This document shows, piece by piece, positions 978 through 47,339 of a DNA stretch of 64,000 nucleotides. The notes beneath the pieces were generated by a model. That model saw only the letters and a program-made list of their open reading frames with translations. It was not told where the DNA came from and made no database searches. The translations under genes were made by a program, and so were the position numbers. The stretch lies in NCBI RefSeq assembly GCF_009931435.1, contig NZ_CP043414.1; one strand, written 5' to 3'. The DNA is from Escherichia coli. Its GTDB lineage: Bacteria > Pseudomonadota > Gammaproteobacteria > Enterobacterales > Enterobacteriaceae. How positions within the stretch are numbered: position 1 is the first letter of the stretch; every line of letters begins with the position of its first letter.

Positions 978-3113
978 TTGCTTAATCCGATCGTTCGTAA
1001 ATTCCAGTACGGCCAACACACCGTGACTCTGGAAACCGGCATGATGGCTCGTCAGGCTACTGCCGCTGTTATGGTTAGCATGGATGACACCGCGGTATTC
1101 GTTACCGTTGTTGGTCAGAAAAAAGCCAAACCAGGTCAGGACTTCTTCCCGCTGACCGTTAACTATCAGGAGCGTACCTACGCTGCTGGTCGTATCCCAG
1201 GTAGCTTCTTCCGTCGTGAAGGCCGCCCAAGCGAAGGCGAAACCTTGATTGCGCGTCTGATTGACCGCCCGATTCGCCCGCTGTTCCCGGAAGGCTTCGT
1301 CAACGAAGTTCAGGTTATCGCCACCGTGGTTTCTGTTAACCCGCAGGTTAACCCGGATATCGTTGCGATGATTGGTGCTTCCGCAGCACTTTCTCTGTCT
1401 GGTATTCCGTTCAATGGTCCGATTGGTGCTGCCCGCGTAGGTTACATCAATGACCAGTACGTACTGAACCCGACTCAGGACGAACTGAAAGAGAGCAAAC
1501 TGGATCTGGTTGTTGCCGGTACAGAAGCTGCCGTGCTGATGGTTGAATCTGAAGCTGAACTGCTGAGCGAAGACCAAATGCTGGGCGCAGTGGTGTTCGG
1601 TCATGAACAACAGCAGGTTGTTATTCAGAACATCAATGAACTGGTGAAAGAAGCCGGTAAACCGCGTTGGGATTGGCAGCCGGAGCCGGTAAACGAAGCG
1701 CTGAACGCGCGCGTTGCTGCGCTGGCTGAAGCTCGTCTGAGCGATGCTTATCGCATCACCGACAAACAAGAGCGTTATGCGCAGGTTGATGTCATCAAAT
1801 CTGAAACCATCGCGACGCTGCTTGCTGAAGATGAAACCCTGGACGAAAACGAACTGGGTGAAATTCTGCACGCTATCGAGAAAAATGTTGTTCGTAGCCG
1901 CGTACTGGCAGGCGAACCGCGTATCGACGGTCGTGAAAAAGATATGATCCGTGGTCTGGATGTGCGTACTGGCGTGCTGCCGCGTACTCACGGTTCTGCG
2001 TTGTTCACCCGTGGTGAAACGCAGGCACTGGTTACCGCAACGCTGGGTACTGCACGTGACGCACAGGTTCTTGATGAACTGATGGGCGAACGTACTGACA
2101 CCTTCCTGTTCCACTACAACTTCCCTCCGTATTCCGTAGGTGAAACTGGCATGGTCGGTTCTCCGAAGCGTCGTGAAATTGGTCACGGTCGTCTGGCGAA
2201 GCGCGGCGTGCTGGCAGTAATGCCGGATATGGACAAATTCCCGTACACCGTACGTGTAGTGTCTGAAATTACCGAATCCAACGGTTCTTCTTCTATGGCT
2301 TCCGTGTGCGGTGCGTCTCTGGCGCTGATGGACGCAGGTGTGCCAATCAAAGCTGCTGTTGCGGGTATCGCAATGGGGCTGGTGAAAGAAGGCGACAACT
2401 ACGTTGTACTGTCTGACATTTTGGGCGACGAAGATCACCTGGGCGATATGGACTTCAAAGTTGCGGGTTCCCGCGACGGTATCTCTGCACTGCAGATGGA
2501 TATCAAAATTGAAGGTATCACCAAAGAGATCATGCAGGTTGCGCTGAATCAAGCTAAAGGTGCGCGTCTGCATATCCTGGGCGTCATGGAGCAGGCGATC
2601 AACGCGCCGCGTGGTGATATCTCTGAGTTTGCACCGCGTATCCATACCATCAAGATCAATCCGGACAAGATCAAAGACGTTATCGGTAAAGGCGGTTCTG
2701 TTATCCGTGCCCTGACCGAAGAAACTGGCACCACCATCGAAATCGAAGATGACGGTACTGTGAAGATCGCAGCGACCGACGGCGAGAAAGCGAAAAACGC
2801 TATTCGTCGTATCGAAGAAATCACCGCAGAAATCGAAGTGGGCCGCGTCTACAATGGTAAAGTGACCCGTATCGTTGACTTTGGCGCGTTTGTTGCCATC
2901 GGCGGCGGTAAAGAAGGTCTGGTCCACATCTCTCAAATCGCCGACAAGCGTGTTGAGAAAGTGACCGACTACCTGCAGATGGGTCAGGAAGTTCCGGTGA
3001 AAGTTCTGGAAGTTGATCGCCAGGGCCGTATCCGTCTGAGCATTAAAGAAGCGACTGAGCAGTCTCAACCTGCTGCAGCACCGGAAGCTCCGGCTGCAGA
3101 ACAGGGCGAGTAA
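978..3113 (+). CDS. pnp: polynucleotide phosphorylase (PNPase), 711 aa, TTG start
   Basis: ORF 891..3113; N-terminus [21 protein letters not shown] begins at the in-frame TTG at 978; RNase PH-like repeats, KH and S1 regions at C-terminus (…[28 protein letters not shown]…). Confidence 0.95.
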
Positions 3114-18900: not shown

Positions 18901-19764
18901 ATGAAACAACACCAATCGGCGGATAATTCTCAGGGCCAGCTTTACATTGTACCGACGCCAATCGGCAATCTGGCAGATATCACCCAGCGTGCGTTGGAGG
19001 TTTTACAGGCCGTTGATCTGATTGCCGCCGAGGATACGCGTCATACCGGTTTACTGCTGCAACATTTTGGAATTAACGCCAGGTTGTTCGCCTTGCACGA
19101 CCATAACGAACAACAGAAAGCCGAAACGTTACTGGCGAAGCTGCAGGAAGGGCAAAACATTGCGCTGGTGTCCGATGCCGGAACGCCACTAATTAACGAT
19201 CCCGGCTATCATCTGGTGCGTACCTGCCGAGAAGCGGGGATTCGCGTGGTGCCACTACCGGGGCCGTGTGCTGCTATCACTGCATTAAGTGCTGCGGGTT
19301 TACCATCCGATCGTTTTTGTTATGAAGGCTTTTTACCTGCCAAATCAAAAGGCCGCCGTGATGCGCTAAAAGCCATTGAAGCGGAGCCGCGCACGCTGAT
19401 TTTTTATGAATCGACCCACCGTCTGTTAGATAGCCTGGAAGATATCGTTGCGGTATTAGGCGAATCCCGCTACGTCGTTCTGGCGCGTGAGCTGACCAAA
19501 ACCTGGGAAACCATTCACGGCGCGCCCGTTGGCGAGCTGCTGGCGTGGGTCAAAGAAGATGAAAACCGTCGCAAAGGTGAAATGGTGCTGATTGTTGAAG
19601 GCCATAAAGCACAGGAAGAAGACTTACCTGCCGATGCCCTGCGCACGCTGGCGTTGTTACAGGCTGAGCTTCCGCTGAAGAAAGCGGCGGCGCTGGCGGC
19701 AGAGATTCACGGCGTGAAAAAAAACGCGCTGTATAAGTATGCGCTGGAACAGCAGGGGGAGTGA
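18901..19764 (+). CDS. rsmI: 16S rRNA (cytidine1402-2'-O)-methyltransferase RsmI
   Basis: 287 aa; tetrapyrrole-methylase-like fold; divergent from lpoA. Confidence 0.9.
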
Positions 19765-31300: not shown

Positions 31301-31589
31301 GAAATGGCGCCCGTAGCTCAACACGGATGTGTTCGGCGGGCATTGTTCACTGACCTTTTACAGCCTGTTTTCTGCTCAAATTAGAAACTTCAGCAAAGGT
31401 AATGCAAATGCATTATTAACAGCAGAAAGCGCCAGAACCAACGAAAAAAGAGAGCATGTTTCCCATTTTGCGAGGCGCTTTCCAAATCACCCGCTCAGTC
31501 CCCTCGCGTTGCAGTGCTAAAAGCACTATTTTGCAAATTTGTGACCTTCTTCACTCTCCCAAAAGGCGGTGATCTCACGGTGGGGATCC

Positions 31590-31815
31590 ACTTTCTGCTT
31601 TCGCTTTTCTGCCGTTAGCACTCGCTATTTCGGCATCTCTTCTTTTCACTTTTTCAGTTTGTCATTTTCATTTGCGGTCAACCGAAAGTTCTGGAGTCGA
31701 TTTTTCCAGGTTTCAACGCCGTTGTCGCGTTCACAAATTCACTTCTTTTCTTCTGATGTAATGCATTCAAAAGAAAATGAAAGCTGCAAAATGCAAGAAT
31801 GCAACGAAATACTTT
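31590..31815. promoter_or_regulatory. long leader of the second DeoR gene, rich in TTTC/GAAA repeats (candidate operator array)
   Basis: ctttctgctttcgcttttctgcc, tcttttcactttttcagtttgtcattttcatttgcgg, gaaaatgaaagctg; motif class resembles the aga operators. Confidence 0.4.
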
Positions 31816-31832
31816 TTCAGGGAGCGATAAAC

Positions 31833-32603
31833 ATGCTAGATAGCCTAAGACGCCGCGAACAAATCATTGATTTGTTATGTGCCCAGGGAAGCGTACGCGT
31901 TGAGCCGCTCAGCATCCATTTTGGTGTCTCATCGGTCACGATCCGCAATGACTTACGGTATCTGGAGCAAAAAGGTTGCGTCATGCGTTCCTATGGCGGT
32001 GCCGTGTTGAATCAACACTTTGCGCTCGACAGACCCTTGCAGGATAAAGATCGCCTTAATCGTGATGTTAAAGTGCGAATTGCCGAAAAAGCGGCCAGTT
32101 TTGTCAAAGATGGCGATACATTAATTATCGATTCTGGTTCAACGACCACGCTAATTCCCGCTTCGCTCAAAGGGCGTCGGGATTTAGTCGTCATGACGAA
32201 TGCCTTGAATATCGCCTGGGAAATGGCCAGTTTTGAACGGGTGGATGTTATGATCCTTGGTGGAAATGTTCGCCAGAGCGTCTACTCCCTGTATGGGCCT
32301 TCGGCAGAACAACAACTCCGGCAGTATCGCTTTGATAAGCTGTTTTTGGGCGTGGACGGCTTTTGCCTTGAAGCAGGGATTACCACACCACATCCGGGTG
32401 AGGCACATCTGAACCAGGTGATGTGCCAGGTTGCGCAGGAAATTACTGTTGTCGCGGACTCCAGTAAATTTGGCCGCAAAAGCTTCTGTATGATCGGTGA
32501 AGTGAGCGAGATAGATCGACTGATTACCGATAGCGGTATTCCGGAGAATTACAAAGCAGCATTAACGCAAATGGGTGTGGAAGTTGTGATTGCTGATGAG
32601 TGA
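31833..32603 (+). CDS. DeoR-family transcriptional regulator, AgaR paralogue (256 aa)
   Basis: ORF 31569..32603; start set at MLDSLRRREQIIDLL preceded by GGAG; alignable by eye with AgaR along its length (…VTIRNDL..LE.KG…YGGA…DSG.TT…FLGVD…). Confidence 0.8.
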   Translation: MLDSLRRREQIIDLLCAQGSVRVEPLSIHFGVSSVTIRNDLRYLEQKGCVMRSYGGAVLNQHFALDRPLQDKDRLNRDVKVRIAEKAASFVKDGDTLIIDSGSTTTLIPASLKGRRDLVVMTNALNIAWEMASFERVDVMILGGNVRQSVYSLYGPSAEQQLRQYRFDKLFLGVDGFCLEAGITTPHPGEAHLNQVMCQVAQEITVVADSSKFGRKSFCMIGEVSEIDRLITDSGIPENYKAALTQMGVEVVIADE

Positions 32604-32604
32604 G

Positions 32605-32642
32605 AAAATGTGGCTGGAGATAAACGTCGCCAGCCACATTAC
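32605..32642. terminator. bidirectional hairpin terminator between convergent DeoR gene and ROK kinase gene
   Basis: aatgtggctgg...ccagccacatt inverted repeat. Confidence 0.6.
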
Positions 32643-32647
32643 GTTAT

Positions 32648-33559
32648 TCAGGTTGCAAGTTCGATTTGCAGCAACGCCGCGCCTCGTACACCGCTCGTTG
32701 CTCCGTGAATCGCAGAAAATACGCGCGCAGGTTCCAGTCCAGGAAGAAGATAACGCGTCATAGCTTTCGGCAATAACGTGTAAATTTCTTTGAAGTTAGA
32801 CACACCGCCGCCAAGAACAAATGCATCTACGTCGAGAATATGCTGCAACTGTGCCAGCGTACAACCAACCATATCTATCCAGGCGCTAATGGTGGTGATG
32901 GCACTGGGAACGCCACGTTGATGATTTTCTAACAATGTCTCCATAGTGATTTGCTCACCGCTGAAATGCTTATGTAACCAGAGCAAGCCAGGACCGGACT
33001 GGTAGCGTTCCAGGCACCCTTGCAAACCGCAGCCGCATTGTAATTCAGGCAGGTTATAGCGCCGCGTAAATGTCGCCGGGAGCGGTAAATGGCCAAACTC
33101 GCAGGCCATACGGTTACGGCCACGGTACAACTGGCCATCAATAACTAATCCCCCGCCCATACCCGTGCCGATAATCGCGCCAAAGATCCGACTATATTGA
33201 CGAGCTTGATCGGTATGCGCTTCTGATAGGGCGAAGCAGCAGCAGTCATTATCCATTATTACCGGGCGGTTAAGGCGATTTGCCAGATCGGTTAACACCT
33301 GGCGTCCGGTCAGGCAGGGAACGTTAGAAGACAACAGTTTACCGGTGTGCCGATCCATAACGCCGGGCATCCCGATACCTATTTTGCCTTGCGTACCCGT
33401 GGCCCAGTCAGCGGTATCAATCAGAGACACAAATGTGGATAGAAAAAGCGCGTAATCCTGAACAGGCGTAGCTACCCGCTTGCGCCAGCAAATTTGTAAA
33501 TCCTGATCAAAGGCGACTATCTCTGTTTTGGTTCCACCAATATCAACACCGTAAAACAT
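32648..33559 (-). CDS. ROK-family sugar kinase (NagK-like N-acetylhexosamine kinase candidate), 303 aa
   Basis: N-terminal GVDIGGTK ATP motif; ROK zinc motif CGCGLQGCLERY; same length as the NagK family. Confidence 0.8.
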   Translation of the reverse strand: MFYGVDIGGTKTEIVAFDQDLQICWRKRVATPVQDYALFLSTFVSLIDTADWATGTQGKIGIGMPGVMDRHTGKLLSSNVPCLTGRQVLTDLANRLNRPVIMDNDCCCFALSEAHTDQARQYSRIFGAIIGTGMGGGLVIDGQLYRGRNRMACEFGHLPLPATFTRRYNLPELQCGCGLQGCLERYQSGPGLLWLHKHFSGEQITMETLLENHQRGVPSAITTISAWIDMVGCTLAQLQHILDVDAFVLGGGVSNFKEIYTLLPKAMTRYLLPGLEPARVFSAIHGATSGVRGAALLQIELAT

Positions 33560-33577
33560 CGCTCATCTCCTTTGGTT

Positions 33578-34834
33578 TCACAGCACAACCAGGGTATTTT
33601 CCTTGCGAGCGCGTTCGGCGGCAAAGACCATTAAATGACTTTCGAGCGATTCATCTGGTCCTGAAAGGATCATCGCTCGATCGTCAGCCATCACGGCATG
33701 GATAAAGCTGTCCATCAGATAGTAATCACCACCACCGTGCCCTCCCATTTGGGTGTGAGTGCCTGCGTTTTTCTCTTCAACGGTGTAAATAGTTTCCTGG
33801 TCGGTGAGAAAATCAAAACACCGAATGGTGTTGCCATCGCCTTCCAGATAACCTTTCGAACCGAAAACTCGGGTTTTGCGATCCTCCATTTTCGTAAAGG
33901 CTGTCATTGTAAAAGTGACGCTCTGCTGATGCGCAAACTGCATGTTTACCACTTGATGATCAACAACATCGTTATCGCAGCAATAAACACAGCGACCATA
34001 GGGGCCGTCACGCAGGGCCTGACGAATATTCTCTTCAGTAGGATTTGGTGTTAACACGTGGCGAAAGTGAAACGTACATTTATGGGCTTCGCCAGCATAA
34101 ATTTTGCATGCGGACCACGGGCAGGTCGCTTCTGCCTGGCAATCGAGACAGCGTTCGGCTGCGCCTTCAGGTTGGTTTTGTTTTACAAAATGGTTGAGCC
34201 CGCCAAATGAGCTAACGGTTTTACAGTTGTCTCCCATGATGTAGCGGATCCAGTCCAGATCGTGGCAGGACTTTTGTAACAACATAAATGATGATTCAGC
34301 CTCGTTGCGCCAGTTACCACGCACAAAAGAGTGTGCCTGGTGCCAGTAACCGACGGGTTCGAGATGCTGCATACTGATAATGTCGCCAATGATGCCGCTG
34401 TCGAGTAAGGATTTGAGTTTTTGTGTATATCGGGTGTAACGAAGAACGTGTGCGACGGCTAATAAGACATTATTGCGTTTGACGGCATCAATGATAATGC
34501 GGCAATCGTGCTCTGTTGGCGCGAGCGGTTTTTCCAACAGAATGTGATAACCGAGATCGGCAAAAGCGACGGCCGGATCTCTATGCATATTGTCTTGCGT
34601 ACAAATAAGTACAGCATCAGCCATTTTTGGCCGAGCAGCAGCCTCTTTCCAGTTGCTAAAAATATTATCTGTCGGGATCGTATGCCGGGACACAACTTGC
34701 TCGCGGTAAGCCTCTCTAGGTTCAGCAACACCTACCACTTGCATTCTGTCCGGATGCTCAAGGGCATAGCGGGAATATATTTCTCCACGTGCGCCTGCAC
34801 CTATTACTAAAACAGTGACTTTATTTTTACTCAT
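33578..34834 (-). CDS. Gfo/Idh/MocA-family NAD(P)-dependent oxidoreductase with Cys-rich insert
   Basis: N-terminal Rossmann VLVIGAGARG and EKP motif (LLEKPLA); internal Cys cluster CLDCQAEATCPWSACK ... CVYCCD. Confidence 0.75.
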   Translation of the reverse strand: MSKNKVTVLVIGAGARGEIYSRYALEHPDRMQVVGVAEPREAYREQVVSRHTIPTDNIFSNWKEAAARPKMADAVLICTQDNMHRDPAVAFADLGYHILLEKPLAPTEHDCRIIIDAVKRNNVLLAVAHVLRYTRYTQKLKSLLDSGIIGDIISMQHLEPVGYWHQAHSFVRGNWRNEAESSFMLLQKSCHDLDWIRYIMGDNCKTVSSFGGLNHFVKQNQPEGAAERCLDCQAEATCPWSACKIYAGEAHKCTFHFRHVLTPNPTEENIRQALRDGPYGRCVYCCDNDVVDHQVVNMQFAHQQSVTFTMTAFTKMEDRKTRVFGSKGYLEGDGNTIRCFDFLTDQETIYTVEEKNAGTHTQMGGHGGGDYYLMDSFIHAVMADDRAMILSGPDESLESHLMVFAAERARKENTLVVL

Positions 34835-34876
34835 ATAAAGAAATACCTTTCTGATAAATTCATCTTAATTGCTACG

Positions 34877-35635
34877 TTATAAATTACGAAAACTAACAAG
34901 ATGAAATCCGTGTTTTTCAATCGCATATTTGAGTGACGGTGTAGTCAGAACCGTAAGTTCTTCCAGCCGTTGATAGCAGTAACTGCTCGACATTAAGTGG
35001 TTATCTACAAATCCAGGGTGACACATAATTTCCAGCGATTTTTCATCACGTTTTATGGCGCTATCGAGGAGTGATAAAAAAAAGTCTTCTGAAATATTAT
35101 TATCGTAGAAATTACTGCTGAATCCCTCACTACTTTTGGCATCCAGCGAATCGATTTTTTTCTCTCGCAGGACAGAATGGTCTATACGTAATGGTAAATT
35201 TTTCTCACGCGCGAACCGCGCGACAACGGGATAAACCTGCGGGAGCATATGAACGCTGTGATGGCTGTCTAAATGGGTGGGCTCCCGTTTAAATACATCA
35301 ATAAAACGTTGATATTGAGAATTCAGTTCCTGTTCAATTTCACCCGTGTTTAATTGCCCTTGCTCCGCGACATCCCAGATCCATTTACCTAATTGGCCTG
35401 CGCGTACCAGCGAAGGCATATCCGTTAAGGCAGCGCCATAGCTCAAAACAAAATGTAACCCGACGCCGAGCTGTGGGGTTTCGGCACTTAAAGAGGCAGC
35501 ATGATCAATTGCCGGAGCATTCATCATCGCAGTTGTTGAGCGAACGACACCATTTCGTACTGCCTCGATAATTCCATAATTAATACCTTTACTTAGTCCA
35601 AAGTCATCCGCATTCACAATTAATAAGCGTTGCAT
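34877..35635 (-). CDS. YdjC/ChbG-family carbohydrate deacetylase
   Basis: MQRLLIVNADDFGLSKGINYGIIEA... and HLDSHH metal-site motif typical of the ChbG/YdjC family. Confidence 0.85.
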   Translation of the reverse strand: MQRLLIVNADDFGLSKGINYGIIEAVRNGVVRSTTAMMNAPAIDHAASLSAETPQLGVGLHFVLSYGAALTDMPSLVRAGQLGKWIWDVAEQGQLNTGEIEQELNSQYQRFIDVFKREPTHLDSHHSVHMLPQVYPVVARFAREKNLPLRIDHSVLREKKIDSLDAKSSEGFSSNFYDNNISEDFFLSLLDSAIKRDEKSLEIMCHPGFVDNHLMSSSYCYQRLEELTVLTTPSLKYAIEKHGFHLVSFRNL

Positions 35636-35647
35636 AAGGCGTCCTTG

Positions 35648-37000
35648 TTATTGATGAGATTGGGTAAGTTCAGCAATGGTGCTGGAAAATTGAGGCAGAT
35701 GTTTTTTATGGGCAATGATCAGTTCACGTACTAATTTTTCAGCGTCGTTATCCGAGGTCATTAGCGGGTTAAGGCACAGAGCCAGCAGCGTATCGTTATA
35801 GTTACCACTTATTGCCGCCCGGGCTGCCGCGATCTCAAAACATTTGATTGAATGAATGAGCCCCAGTACATTTTCGTCAAAATGAGTGAGACGCGGGTGG
35901 GGGGTAACACCGTTATTCCCCAGAATGCAGGTCATTTCAACGGTCCAGTCTTCAGGGATATTTTTTACACTGCCCTTGTGTGGAATATTAACGTAGTGTT
36001 CTGTTTGCGTGTCATTATAAATTGCATTAATAACGGCACAGGCTGCATCTGAATAATACGCACCACCACGCAGCTCCAGTTCTTCAGGTTTTGTATTTAG
36101 TTCTGGGTCCTTATACAGCTCAAATAATTTTTTCTCTAATGCCTGCACGACTTGTGCACGAACGCCATTTTTATAAAATTCCCCCATCTCAATAGCGAGC
36201 ATTTCTTTATGTTTAAAATAGTAACGTAAGTAAGCACAGGGCAGGAGATTAAGTGCCCGAATTAAATTAGGATTGAAGGTTAAACTGTCAATATTTTTGA
36301 CGGTACTTCCTTCAAGCAAACCTTCAACGACGCCATCGAGCAATTCAGCAAAACGTGATTGTCCATTGACCCATACGTCTTTAAGAAAGACCATATGATT
36401 TAAGCCAAATATGTCTATTGAAAGATCATCGTCCGCGCCAAGTTTTAGGGCATTGCAAACGAAGCTCTTCATCCCAATAGGGACATTACAGACACCGATA
36501 AAACGTTTAAATTGGGTATGGCGGTACACGGCTTCAGTAACCATCCCGGCAGGATTGGTAAAATTAATAATCCAGGCATCAGGGCAAAGTTCCTCAACAT
36601 CTTTGATAATATCAAAAACTACTGGAATGGTTCGTAACCCGTTGAATAAACCGCCCGCGCCATTGGTTTCTTGCCCGAGATATCCCTGACTTAGTGGAAT
36701 CAACTCATCCATTTCCCGAGCTTTTAATTGCCCGACCCGAAATTGTGTGGTGACAAAGTGCGCGCCCTGTAATGCAGCGCGACGGTCAAGTGTTTTCACT
36801 ATTTTTAACGGAATGCCAGCTTTTATCACCATCCGCTGACAAAGGTCGAAAATAATGTCCAGCTTTTCTTTGCCTTCTTCAATATCAACTAACCATAATT
36901 CACTGACCGGTAATTCATCGTAGCGTTTTATGAATCCTTCAAGGAGTTCTGGTGTATAGCTACTGCCACCGCCAATAGTAACGATTTTTAAGTTTTTCAT
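35648..37000 (-). CDS. glycoside hydrolase family 4 NAD+/Mn2+-dependent 6-phospho-glycosidase (ChbF-like), 450 aa
   Basis: N-terminal KIVTIGGGSSYTPEL dinucleotide-binding signature and GH4-type core (…FINFTNPAG…CNVPIGM…). Confidence 0.85.
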   Translation of the reverse strand: MKNLKIVTIGGGSSYTPELLEGFIKRYDELPVSELWLVDIEEGKEKLDIIFDLCQRMVIKAGIPLKIVKTLDRRAALQGAHFVTTQFRVGQLKAREMDELIPLSQGYLGQETNGAGGLFNGLRTIPVVFDIIKDVEELCPDAWIINFTNPAGMVTEAVYRHTQFKRFIGVCNVPIGMKSFVCNALKLGADDDLSIDIFGLNHMVFLKDVWVNGQSRFAELLDGVVEGLLEGSTVKNIDSLTFNPNLIRALNLLPCAYLRYYFKHKEMLAIEMGEFYKNGVRAQVVQALEKKLFELYKDPELNTKPEELELRGGAYYSDAACAVINAIYNDTQTEHYVNIPHKGSVKNIPEDWTVEMTCILGNNGVTPHPRLTHFDENVLGLIHSIKCFEIAAARAAISGNYNDTLLALCLNPLMTSDNDAEKLVRELIIAHKKHLPQFSSTIAELTQSHQ

Positions 37001-37077
37001 GTTACTTCCATACTCAATATTAAATTGACTTGTGATGCCATGGTTTTATCTAAACGCTGGCATGATGAAGTGTGCTA

Positions 37078-38439
37078 TTAAAACTTTAATGCATTGGCAA
37101 TGTCTTCTTCGCTTTCTTGTTTAATTATTTCAACTTGTGCTTTGTTTGAGATAATGACAAAGGGAAGATAAACCATTGTGGCAACACCTAAGTTAAAGAG
37201 CGCCAGGAGTAATCCAGCAATGCTACCATTCGAGCTAAAGAACGCATTGAGTCCAGGAGGCATGGTCCAGGGGGCAATATTTGTTGATGGCGGAATAATA
37301 CCCATGTTATAGGCGATTAAGGTAATCCCGGCGAGAATAGGTTGAATCATCACAAACGGGATTAACATAATGGGGTTCATAATGATCGGCAAACCAAATA
37401 AAATAGGTTCGTTGATATTAAAGATACCAGAAGGTAACGCTAATTTAGCAACCTGACGATAATCTTCCCGGCGTGACGCAATGAAAATGGCGAAAATGAG
37501 TCCCAGCGTTGCCCCTGTTCCACCGAGGAACACGTAAGCGTCAAGCATTGGCCCGGTCCAGAAATGGAAGGTTTTTCCTGCTTCCAGTGCCGCTTGTACT
37601 GAACCATATTGTGTATAGGTGGCGATATTCTCCAGTCCCCACGGACCCAACGTGCTGCTTTGCAACGCGGTTAATACTAAGCCGCCGTGGATACCAAAGA
37701 ACCATAACAGGGAATTAAAGACAACGAATGTCCAGCCAACAATACCGCTCATTGACGTTAATGGCGTAGCCAGTGAGGTGATAATGACCTGATGGAAATT
37801 GGTGCCATATATCGACAATATCCCAGACAAACTACCCATAATTAACAGGATGATAAACCCGGGCACCATTGCTGAGAATGAGCGTGATACTGCGGTCGGA
37901 ACACTCGCGGGCAACCGAATCACCCAATTGCGGCGGATAATAAAAGCGAAAATTTCCGCTACAACTAATCCAATGATCATACCAGACAGAATATTGGCGC
38001 CGCCTAACCAGTTTGCACCAATGACATTAGCGGTTTCTCCTGCCTTGAAGGGGGTGACAGTCATAAACGCTGCGACAGAGAGTAAGCCAACGGATAACGA
38101 ATCAACTTTCCGTTCTTCGGCCAACCCCATCCCAATAAAAAAGGGGGTCATGAGTGACATAATGCCCAGCGTGCCATGATAAGCACTGTCACCGACGACG
38201 GTGAAGGCGCTTAAGGTTTTTATGGTCGATGGTTCCAGTCGGACGCCTAATGAATAAAAAAAGGAGCCTTCGCCAAAATCTAAAAAAACGCTATTAATGA
38301 GGACAAATAACGTACCGGCTAACGTTAATGGCATCATACGGATAAAACCGTTTTTTATTGCATTGACGTGAGGTTGTTTCCCTAATTTAACTGCAAAAGG
38401 AAGAATGAGTTTTTCAAGTAACGCCATCACTCCGGGCAT
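37078..38439 (-). CDS. PTS lactose/cellobiose-family EIIC component (ChbC-like)
   Basis: 453-aa polytopic membrane ORF with the lactose/cellobiose-family EIIC motif …[14 protein letters not shown]…. Confidence 0.85.
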
Positions 38440-38508
38440 AAAAATATCCTTATATACCGATTAATGTATCACTGCGACTTTGGTTTTATTAATATCCTGT
38501 TGCTATGG

Positions 38509-38826
38509 TTACTTTTGCTCTTTTTTTATTATGGCGATAGCTGATTTTAGAACACCTAAGCCATCAATTTTTCCATATAACATTGAATCAATAACTTCCA
38601 CTGGCTTTCCTGGTAATAAGCTTTGGATCTCTGATTGCATGTAAGCAATTTGAGGTCCCAATAATATAACATCGGCTTCCGGCCCTTTCTCTGCGGCAAC
38701 AGATTCGGAGAATGCTTCGATAATTACTGGCACATCATATTTTATCGCCTGCACTTTCATTTTTGACACCAGCAGTGATGTTGACATTCCCGCTGAACAA
38801 AATAAGTATATTTTTTTCTTTTCCAT
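38509..38826 (-). CDS. PTS lactose/cellobiose-family EIIB component (ChbB-like), 105 aa
   Basis: ORF 38509..39042; start set at [23 protein letters not shown] (phospho-Cys motif), preceded by GGAG. Confidence 0.8.
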
Positions 38827-39059
38827 AGGGACTCCAGATATATTACGTAATAATATATTTGTCATGCCATGAATGGCATATGAGGCGACTTTAATTAAAA
38901 AGGCACGGATGTTTATATTGATTTCCTGAATGTCGTCTTTTGGTATTAATCTCAAAAATTTCAGGAGCCATTGAATAATCTGGTTTATAGGATTGAATGT
39001 CAAGAGAGTGAAATTGTGGGCGTGTTGTAATAAAAATAGCACGGCTTTCGGTAGGTTTC

Positions 39060-44342: not shown

Positions 44343-45488
44343 ATGAAAATCGTAATCGCCCCAGACTCTTATAAAGAAAGTTTATCTGCCAGCGAGGTTG
44401 CGCAGGCGATAGAAAAAGGATTTCGGGAAATTTTTCCTGATGCACAGTATGTTTCCGTTCCGGTTGCCGACGGTGGTGAAGGAACGGTGGAAGCCATGAT
44501 TGCAGCCACCCAGGGGGCTGAACGTCACGCCTGGGTTACAGGGCCGCTGGGCGAGAAAGTGAATGCCAGTTGGGGGATCTCCGGCGATGGCAAAACCGCG
44601 TTTATCGAAATGGCGGCGGCCAGTGGGCTGGAACTGGTACCTGCGGAAAAACGCGATCCACTTGTGACCACTTCACGCGGTACTGGCGAATTAATCCTGC
44701 AGGCGCTGGAGAGCGGCGCGACAAACATTATTATCGGCATTGGCGGCAGCGCCACCAACGACGGCGGCGCAGGCATGGTGCAGGCGCTGGGGGCGAAATT
44801 ATGCGATGCCAACGGCAATGAAATTGGTTTTGGCGGCGGTAGCCTTAATACTCTGAATGATATTGATATTTCCGGCCTCGATCCGCGCTTAAAAGATTGT
44901 GCTATTCGCGTCGCTTGTGATGTCACCAATCCGCTGGTGGGCGATAACGGCGCATCGCGCATCTTTGGCCCACAAAAGGGAGCCAGTGAAGCGATGATTG
45001 TCGAGCTGGACAATAACCTCTCTCACTATGCCGATGTCATTAAAAAAGCGCTGCATGTTGATGTGAAAGATGTCCCCGGCGCAGGAGCTGCGGGCGGTAT
45101 GGGCGCGGCGCTGATGGCGTTTCTTGGTGCGGAACTGAAAAGTGGTATTGAAATCGTCACGACGGCGCTGAATCTGGAGGAACATATTCACGATTGTACG
45201 CTGGTGATCACCGGTGAAGGGCGTATTGACAGCCAGAGTATACACGGCAAGGTTCCGATTGGCGTCGCAAACGTGGCGAAAAAGTACCATAAACCGGTGA
45301 TTGGCATTGCGGGTAGCCTGACCAATGATGTTGGCGTTGTACATCAGCATGGCATTGATGCGGTCTTCAGCGTATTGACCAGTATTGGTACGTTGGATGA
45401 AGCATTCCGCGGGGCTTATGACAATATTTACCGTGCTTCACGTAATATCGCCGCGACACTGGCGATTGGAATGCGCAACGCGGGGTGA
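44343..45488 (+). CDS. garK: glycerate 2-kinase (381 aa)
   Basis: ORF 44262..45488; start set at MKIVIAPDSYKESL (glycerate kinase family N-terminus). Confidence 0.9.
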   Translation: MKIVIAPDSYKESLSASEVAQAIEKGFREIFPDAQYVSVPVADGGEGTVEAMIAATQGAERHAWVTGPLGEKVNASWGISGDGKTAFIEMAAASGLELVPAEKRDPLVTTSRGTGELILQALESGATNIIIGIGGSATNDGGAGMVQALGAKLCDANGNEIGFGGGSLNTLNDIDISGLDPRLKDCAIRVACDVTNPLVGDNGASRIFGPQKGASEAMIVELDNNLSHYADVIKKALHVDVKDVPGAGAAGGMGAALMAFLGAELKSGIEIVTTALNLEEHIHDCTLVITGEGRIDSQSIHGKVPIGVANVAKKYHKPVIGIAGSLTNDVGVVHQHGIDAVFSVLTSIGTLDEAFRGAYDNIYRASRNIAATLAIGMRNAG

Positions 45489-45513
45489 CAAGGGCGCGCA
45501 AACCCTCTATACT
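45484..45513 (+). promoter_or_regulatory. rnpB promoter: -35-like GTGACA overlapping garK stop, -10 TATACT
   Basis: hexamers about 17 bp apart, -10 lies a few nt upstream of the M1 RNA 5' end GAAGCUGACC. Confidence 0.6.
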
Positions 45514-45520
45514 GCGCGCC

Positions 45521-45897
<377 letters not shown>

Positions 45898-45904
45898 ATT
45901 TTAA

Positions 45905-45940
45905 CGAAAACCCGCCAGCGTAAACTGGCGGGTTTTTGCT
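45905..45940 (+). terminator. rnpB rho-independent terminator
   Basis: aacccgccagcgtaaactggcgggtttttgctttt. Confidence 0.8.
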
Positions 45941-45959
45941 TTTGAGGAGGGTGGTCGGA

Positions 45960-46060
45960 AAGATGAACGTCTTATCTGGCCTACAAAACAACGAAAATTC
46001 AATATATTGCACAGAGGCAATGTAGGCCTGATAAGCGTAGCGCCTCAGGCAATTTTGTGT
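45960..46060. repeat. REP palindromic elements
   Basis: ggcctacaaaac... and gtaggcctgataagcgtagcgcctcaggc units. Confidence 0.75.
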
Positions 46061-46169
46061 TTATCATCAGTCTCGAACCTGCTTCGGCAAGCTTTTACTT
46101 TTGGTGCAGACGGAAAGATGAACGAATATCTAAGCTATTAATAATAGACTTTGCAAGAAATCATTACAT

Positions 46170-47339
46170 TTATATTTCATTTAAAAGATCGTAATCATAC
46201 GTATATTCTTTGCTAATAAAACGACACTCGTTGAAGCTAAATTTATCGTCTGAAAAGGAATTGTCAACAGAATCTCTCTCTTCCTCCAGGCTATTATCTG
46301 AAAGCAAGTCGTTTGAGTTAGTATAATCTAGGTTGTAATCGACAGTATAATTAATTTCTGGATCGGTTTGGTAATCATTTTTTTTGACGCAATCATATTC
46401 TTCAATAATTTTGTCGATATAATCATATGCTTTTTCTAATGAGAAGTTTTTCATCTCTGGTAATTTAACTTTGCTCAAATAATTATTAATTTTTGAGGAG
46501 TTTTTATATATGCTTTTTGTTAATTCTTTTTCTAATTTGTCTGTTATATTTGCTGTTGGTATGGATTTTATAATCGCATATCTCATGATTTTTAATTGAT
46601 CTTCGGTTAAATCTCCAAGCTCATTTAAACAACTTTCGACAAAGTTGATTTTTTCTCTGGAATAATCATCGCTGATACTTGTTAACGCTGGGGTGATTTT
46701 TAATAAAGAATTCCATGAGATAGTACCATTGTGTGTCGAACGCATAAAATTTATATTGTACATATTGGTTTTAGTAAACTTTGTTGCAAACAATGTAAAG
46801 GGATCTAAAGTCGCGTAAGCCATATGTTTATTTGAAAAATCATAACCAGTTAAATCGACGTTATGCAAGTCCAGATAGGATAAATCTATTACGTCGCCTG
46901 CTCCAGAGCTAAAGATTACATTTAATCTTCTGATTTCATTGTAAATTTTATTTAATGAACAATTTGTGTTCATGATGTCTGCTGAAATTTTTATGTTATT
47001 TAACGGTTCACAAATTATAAGCTCGCAGGTATTGTCTGATCGTTGCGTTATTTGGGCATTATAACCTAAAAAGTCTATGCGAAGAGACGAGTCATTATAA
47101 ATTATTACATTTTTTAAGTATGCTAATTCTTGTTGAAAATCACCATCGATAATACATGTCCCACCAGGTTGCAACGCGCTGATTAACGTGAGCATTTGAT
47201 TAGAAGTCTGTTTTAGTTTTACTACACCTGGTGCTAGTGCTTTGAGGTCATTTATTATGGGGGTTTCAGGAATGTCATTCATTTTTATACATACTAAATT
47301 ATTACCTAAGTCATTACCTATTGATGAAACCGGGAACAT
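46170..47339 (-). CDS. yhaC: AT-rich uncharacterised protein with pentapeptide-repeat segment (YhaC-like)
   Basis: 389 aa; DLSYL/DLHNV/DLTGY/DFSNK five-residue periodicity; acidic Asp/Asn/Tyr-rich C-terminus; low GC by eye. Confidence 0.7.
   Translation of the reverse strand: MFPVSSIGNDLGNNLVCIKMNDIPETPIINDLKALAPGVVKLKQTSNQMLTLISALQPGGTCIIDGDFQQELAYLKNVIIYNDSSLRIDFLGYNAQITQRSDNTCELIICEPLNNIKISADIMNTNCSLNKIYNEIRRLNVIFSSGAGDVIDLSYLDLHNVDLTGYDFSNKHMAYATLDPFTLFATKFTKTNMYNINFMRSTHNGTISWNSLLKITPALTSISDDYSREKINFVESCLNELGDLTEDQLKIMRYAIIKSIPTANITDKLEKELTKSIYKNSSKINNYLSKVKLPEMKNFSLEKAYDYIDKIIEEYDCVKKNDYQTDPEINYTVDYNLDYTNSNDLLSDNSLEEERDSVDNSFSDDKFSFNECRFISKEYTYDYDLLNEI

Follow-up and report, generated by a model that had tools for sequence, protein, structure and literature searches.

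The rnpB promoter at the 3' end of garK in Escherichia coli: a conserved and very probably autonomous sigma-70 unit with changing upstream neighbors in Enterobacterales

Analysis of the junction between garK and rnpB in the window (the whole stretch of 64,000 nucleotides of Escherichia coli DNA considered here) points to the interval 45485-45521 as the autonomous sigma-70 core promoter of rnpB (P-1 / rnpBp), a reading to which we assign a probability of about 0.9. The feature is an already known promoter, and its layout, in which the -35 hexamer contains the garK stop codon, is real, conserved and ordinary. Transcription would initiate at the G with which mature M1 RNA begins, and P-1 transcripts would thus need no 5' processing; the functional unit would begin at approximately -38, with all DNA farther upstream being replaceable, and rnpB expression would rest on its own promoter. 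The functional boundary could possibly lie nearer -43; a few bases upstream of -38 (e.g., GAAGGG) recur in some non-garK species.

The covariance model RNaseP_bact_a (RF00010) matched rnpB with 319.3 bits (gathering score 100, E = 1.6e-104) over model positions 1-367 of 367, i.e., above the gathering threshold across the full model and without truncation, which places this RNA in class A of RNase P RNAs; the matched interval, 45521-45897, is also the one annotated as rnpB by RefSeq in the closest genome. On the other side of the junction, the garK product matched the NCBIfam equivalog PRK10342 with 843 bits over positions 1-381 of 381 and is annotated as garK in the same closest RefSeq genome. 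The junction reads ...AAC GCG GGG TGA CAAGGGCGCGCAAACCCTCTATACTGCGCGCC|GAAGCTGACC, the RNA 5' end being the G of GAAGCTGACC. The earlier note had placed the M1 RNA 5' end about 33 nt past the garK stop, with a TATACT in the gap and a -35-like GTGACA overlapping the stop codon. The gap from the stop to +1 measures 32 nt, the covariance model puts the RNA start exactly where it had been assumed and not elsewhere, and both hexamers lie as described, all elements being correct to within 1 nt (Table 1).

Table 1. Features of the garK-rnpB junction and related elements (window coordinates)
Feature	Position	Strand	Basis or remark
rsmI, probable ancestral upstream neighbor of rnpB	18901..19764	+	tblastn, NCBIfam PRK14994, RefSeq
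garK (glycerate 2-kinase), last gene of garPLRK	44343..45488	+	NCBIfam PRK10342; RefSeq
-35 hexamer GTGACA	45485..45490	+	5/6 match to TTGACA; promoter scan
garK stop TGA = promoter positions -35 to -33	45486..45488	+	read from sequence
Spacer, 17 bp	45491..45507	+	between -35 and -10 hexamers
Distal spacer half	45491-45499 (-30 to -22)	+	differs freely among species
Proximal spacer block AAACCCTC	45500-45507 (-21 to -14)	+	invariant or nearly so, 55 Enterobacteriaceae
Perfect 8-nt inverted repeat GGCGCGCA / TGCGCGCC, 12-nt loop, ends at -1	45493..45520	+	
-10 hexamer TATACT	45508..45513	+	5/6 match; promoter scan
G+C-rich discriminator GCGCGCC	45514..45520	+	between -10 and +1
rnpB (M1 RNA, RNase P RNA type A)	45521..45897	+	Rfam RF00010; RefSeq annotation
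rnpB intrinsic terminator: 12-bp perfect hairpin, then T run	45907..45941	+	inverted repeat and sequence

In the promoter scan, GTGACA, 17 nt and TATACT together gave 10 of 12 matches, and the -10 hexamer is separated by 7 nt from a +1 (G at 45521) that is position 1 of the RF00010 match. The sequence properties of a housekeeping sigma-70 promoter are present, namely: (i) hexamers near TTGACA and TATAAT, (ii) a spacer within 17 +/- 1 bp, and (iii) a purine start 6-8 nt past the -10 hexamer, coinciding with the predicted RNA 5' end. The literature gives this G as the experimentally determined start. Counting both strands, the 64-kb window contains only six sites of equal quality, which corresponds to a chance of approximately 2e-4 that such a site falls at the proper distance from any one base; in addition, hexamers, spacing and discriminator have been kept in 55 Enterobacteriaceae species and, judging from these sequences, chance cannot be the explanation.

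This promoter shares with rrn P1 and tRNA promoters a non-consensus -35 hexamer, a G+C-rich discriminator by the start site (typical of stringently controlled stable-RNA promoters) and a stable RNA product, whereas its spacer is 17 bp vs. 16 bp in rrn P1. Unlike stringent stable-RNA promoters, it lacks a visible A+T-rich UP element: none was seen at -40 to -60, where the window has G+C-rich garK coding DNA, a region that varies with codon periodicity, is not conserved between species and is replaced by unrelated DNA in some of them. Neither an ordinary sigma-70 spacer nor a simple core promoter would lead one to expect the near-invariance of the proximal spacer block AAACCCTC, which may point to an additional factor or a kinetic requirement.

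The sequence in the window is identical to the proximal promoter of E. coli rnpB (P-1 / rnpBp in RegulonDB/EcoCyc), with the same boxes, discriminator and start at the mature 5' end, the promoter itself showing no differences. Indeed, the 100-bp junction (45441-45540) was found in 5425 of 5426 complete E. coli genomes, with an identity of at least 99% in 5233 of them and of 100% in K-12 strain TG1, so the promoter considered here is the one studied in K-12. With respect to the closest RefSeq genome, one spacer base differs (C versus T at -24). The order of the locus on the E. coli chromosome is garD / garPLRK / rnpB / yhaC-like / yhaB-like / tdcR / tdcABC. Tandem rnpB promoters were reportedly described by Motamedi et al. 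in 1984, and stringent control of rnpB, altered by mutations in the -35 region, is said to have been observed by Jung and Lee (1997) and by Park et al. (2002); FIS and RNase E were reportedly considered in relation to rnpB by Choi et al. (2005) and Ko et al. (2008), respectively. Transcription of rnpB in vitro from "its natural promoter" by the sigma-70 holoenzyme has been performed on a template that included 40 bp of DNA ahead of the rnpB -35 box (PMC5766169).

The same publication mentions a Rho-independent terminator of rnpB and two identical consecutive terminators after rnpB in K-12 derivatives (PMC5766169). Our promoter/terminator scan missed the true rnpB terminator of the window, and its negative results need care; the sequence was therefore read directly instead. 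Downstream of rnpB the window differs from most E. coli: the region past the terminator (45898-46170), which includes a REP-like inverted repeat (45971-45985 / 46021-46035), is covered to at least 80% in only 28 of 5425 E. coli genomes.

For a broader comparison, one genome per species was scanned with a pattern located inside rnpB, which made the sample independent of both the promoter and garK and yielded 120 Enterobacterales loci with 112 distinct promoter sequences. Among the latter, the -35 hexamer retains a 5/6 match to the consensus, being GTGACA in 83, ATGACA in 19 and TTGACC in 7, and the consensus TTGACA itself occurs in none of the 112. The spacer is 17 bp in 111 of 112 promoters, a -10 hexamer is present in all of them 7-8 nt before the 5' end given by the covariance model, and the discriminators are nearly all G+C-rich with a CGCC end, CGCGCC being near-invariant. 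In the 55 Enterobacteriaceae sequences five positions of the -10 hexamer are invariant, and its C is at least 90% conserved.

The DNA preceding this core is far more varied [see below]. The same-strand upstream gene is garK in 45 species (all Enterobacteriaceae), rsmI in 64 (Erwiniaceae, Pectobacteriaceae, Yersiniaceae, Edwardsiella and one Sodalis-like symbiont) and another gene in 12, the last group comprising a DeoR-like regulator, a KbaY/GatY-like aldolase or a PfkB-like kinase that ends 42-78 nt before +1. At least five different genes thereby precede the same core promoter across the 120 Enterobacterales species. Since similarity among the upstream-gene classes starts only at about -38 to -43, the promoter appears as a short self-contained unit with interchangeable upstream DNA. 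In Cedecea sulfonylureivorans garK stops 10 nt ahead of the -35 hexamer, 45 nt upstream of rnpB +1, and the junction CGGGCTGAC|CGGGCGTGACA resembles a 10-nt tandem duplication, possibly the footprint of an IS element.

The garK stop codon falls on the TGA of the -35 hexamer in 42 of the 45 species with garK upstream, and within xTGACA a single triplet doubles as stop codon and promoter bases. The effect of this overlap on garK was assessed by entropy per site over the last 188 codons of 37 distinct garK-type sequences. All of these sequences have TGACA, preceded at position -36 by G in 35 cases and by A in the other 2, but never by T. This position (45485) is also the wobble base of the last Gly codon, with an entropy of 0.30 bits vs. 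a minimum of 0.70 and a mean of 1.47 bits for the 74 other four-fold sites. Third positions of codons -2 to -10 show 1.18 vs. 1.28 bits for the rest, so that no extra constraint is seen on these codons in the 37 sequences; variability among the last 188 residues peaks at -2 to -4, and upstream of -38 the garK-type alignment displays ordinary codon periodicity without sequence constraint from the promoter. Thus, the suggestion of the earlier note that the C-terminal codons of garK are constrained by promoter function holds for the TGA stop and the wobble base of the last Gly codon, the only places where, at the level of the alignment, a promoter constraint is detectable, and fails for codons -2 to -10 and for the C-terminal residues. 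Because the last GarK residues are unconstrained, the overlap is nearly cost-free for garK. A GGT-TGA end would keep both Gly and stop while yielding TTGACA, and it is never observed; the sub-consensus -35 hexamer is therefore a selected property of the promoter rather than one forced by garK, which suggests that selection favors a sub-maximal -35.

The rsmI gene of the window, 25.7 kb from rnpB on the same strand, matched (tblastn, 85% identity) the Pantoea ORF that abuts rnpB. In 31 of the 64 rsmI-type species the rsmI TGA stop is the TGA of the rnpB -35 hexamer, and the end of E. coli RsmI (...YALEQQGE-TGA) matches that of Erwinia persicina, where the stop is shared in this way. Adjacency of rsmI and rnpB is probably the older arrangement, the aga and gar clusters having come between them later in Enterobacteriaceae, an order of events that we infer. 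Placement of garK directly against the promoter in the Enterobacteriaceae ancestor would then have brought its stop codon inside the -35 hexamer. The DNA between rsmI and rnpB amounts to 18.8 kb in the closest RefSeq genome vs. 25.7 kb here, the larger interval being due to an extra chitobiose-like PTS / glycoside-hydrolase cluster at ~31.5-39.0 kb. This cluster (~31569-39042, between agaR and garD) contains a second AgaR/DeoR-like regulator, a ROK kinase, an oxidoreductase, a chitin-disaccharide-deacetylase homologue, a family-4-like glycosidase and PTS IIC/IIB genes; its place is taken by prlF-yhaV in the closest RefSeq genome.

A natural rearrangement at the same point is found in the complete genome of E. 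coli VG48B2, where IS421 (IS4-like) is inserted exactly at the -35 hexamer with a 10-bp target duplication GGTGACAAGG (locus positions 1653-1662 and 3001-3011). Both the garK stop and the rnpB GTGACA are kept, and the DNA upstream of -37 is the end of IS421. The viability of this strain is not proof of normal promoter strength, as outward transcription from the IS element could contribute.

From these comparisons we tentatively propose, as a possibility held at clearly less than even odds, that the rnpB core promoter has been a fixed genomic anchor in Enterobacterales, whose -35 TGA at least twice became the stop of an unrelated gene (rsmI ancestrally, garK in Enterobacteriaceae), and that the few bases upstream of -38 have been a recurrent breakpoint for islands of ~19-26 kb (aga, gar, the chitobiose-like PTS cluster) and IS elements between rsmI and rnpB. 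A "stop-donating" promoter or an insertion hot spot is unproven. A stronger version, in which the overlap of stop and -35 is itself selected or mechanistically favored, the invariant TGA becoming the stop of incoming genes and the bases upstream of -38 serving as a preferred breakpoint for sugar-catabolic islands and IS elements, is in our view unlikely, although it survives better than the other alternatives. It draws on the use of the promoter TGA as a stop by the unrelated garK and rsmI (42/45 and 31/64 species, respectively), the variety of upstream genes (at least five), the IS421 target duplication covering the -35 hexamer, the apparent 10-nt tandem duplication at the Cedecea junction and the Erwinia persicina-like ...EQQGE-TGA end that E. 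coli RsmI still retains. Nevertheless, these cases reduce to about two independent events, for which frame agreement by chance is ~(1/3)^2, and a clustering of breakpoints at the edge of an essential element is expected from purifying selection alone. In addition, GarK and RsmI are of normal family length (381/381 for GarK), and the length of GarK is unchanged in Siccibacter and Cedecea, where its stop lies upstream of and outside the -35 hexamer; the stops thus look native rather than donated by the promoter, and donation of a stop to garK by the -35 TGA is the less likely course.

Returning to the autonomous promoter, its position raises the question of transcription arriving from garPLRK, which the earlier note expected to enter rnpB and took as linking the essential gene of a ribozyme with a catabolic operon. 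No terminator was found in the 32-nt garK-rnpB gap by plus-strand scan, search for inverted repeats or reading of the sequence: the only hairpin there (45493-45520) precedes GAAGCTG and has no T run. The two genes lie on the same strand, as in an operon, and without an intervening intrinsic terminator RNA polymerase from garPLRK can enter rnpB. As with internal promoters in compact operons, promoter bases double as the upstream stop and last codon, and read-through combined with an internal promoter gives nested transcripts. Unlike the usual case, the downstream gene here specifies a ribozyme and its transcription starts at the mature 5' end of that RNA, so read-through products of rnpB are not equivalent to the promoter-derived ones. 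RNase E reportedly degrades upstream rnpB transcripts (Ko et al. 2008). A garP-garL-garR-garK-rnpB transcription unit with an intra-operonic rnpB promoter has been described, and in CRISPRi experiments targeting of rnpBp or rnpB caused a fitness defect, while knock-down of garP, garL, garR or garK left fitness unaffected (10.1101/2020.03.04.975888).

It could be argued that the promoter is embedded in garK in order to couple rnpB functionally to the galactarate/glucarate operon, with read-through supplying a meaningful share of M1 RNA and the promoter shaping the GarK C-terminus. The terminator-free interval, the retention of the stop/-35 arrangement in 42 of 45 garK-type species and the constrained wobble base of the last codon would fit such a role, which we nonetheless judge very improbable: rsmI precedes the promoter in 64 species and yet other genes do so in 12, repression of the gar genes carries no fitness cost (10.1101/2020.03.04.975888), IS421 separates garK from the promoter in one complete E. 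coli genome, garK codons -2 to -10 are under no extra constraint, and a read-through transcript would need 5' processing that the P-1 transcript does not. Neither the CRISPRi literature, nor the interchangeable upstream genes, nor the natural IS421 insertion indicates a dependence of rnpB on upstream transcription. Given a variable upstream gene, harmless gar repression, the IS421 strain and the 5' extension of read-through RNA, read-through appears incidental; it is plausible but not needed, its insignificance being what we infer, and a specific coupling to galactarate catabolism is accordingly not supported. Of the expectations in the earlier note, the possibility of read-through stands and the proposed coupling lacks support.

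Also very improbable is a function of the inverted repeat GGCGCGCA-N12-TGCGCGCC, which covers the spacer, -10 hexamer and discriminator, either as a hairpin that would insulate read-through RNA or signal its processing, or as a palindromic protein-binding site: although the repeat is perfect over 8 bp in E. coli, hairpins of -12 to -14.5 kcal/mol are predicted in many species and the mean minimum free energy of garK-type promoters is -8.6 vs. -4.7 for shuffles, no covariation was found between the arms in 55 Enterobacteriaceae (78.0% of cells paired vs. 78.7% in shuffles), 22% of cells are unpaired with a single compensatory double change (E. albertii), folding of the 81-nt context does not surpass that of shuffles (z = -0.95), the hairpin is absent from several species of Citrobacter and Lelliottia, and rsmI-type species show other hairpins or none. 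Both arms consist of alternating GC and are self-complementary by composition, and the repeat is probably a by-product of this composition; a selected hairpin structure was rejected on the basis of folding, per-species folding and pair counting in the 55 species, the last of which showed no covariation.

Overall, the promoter, its start site, the stringent-type discriminator and the garPLRK-rnpB unit belong to established E. coli knowledge, and the present analysis has little import for them beyond annotation. Its useful outcome is a negative one, in that the overlap with garK does not indicate a regulatory coupling of RNase P with galactarate catabolism, and the coding cost of this overlap comes to one wobble base and TGA as the choice of stop. 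The comparative analysis adds that rsmI is likely the ancestral neighbor of rnpB, and that the promoter is a unit of ~38 bp surviving any upstream replacement; such a self-contained promoter is relevant to engineering of the locus and to the use of rnpB as an expression reference.
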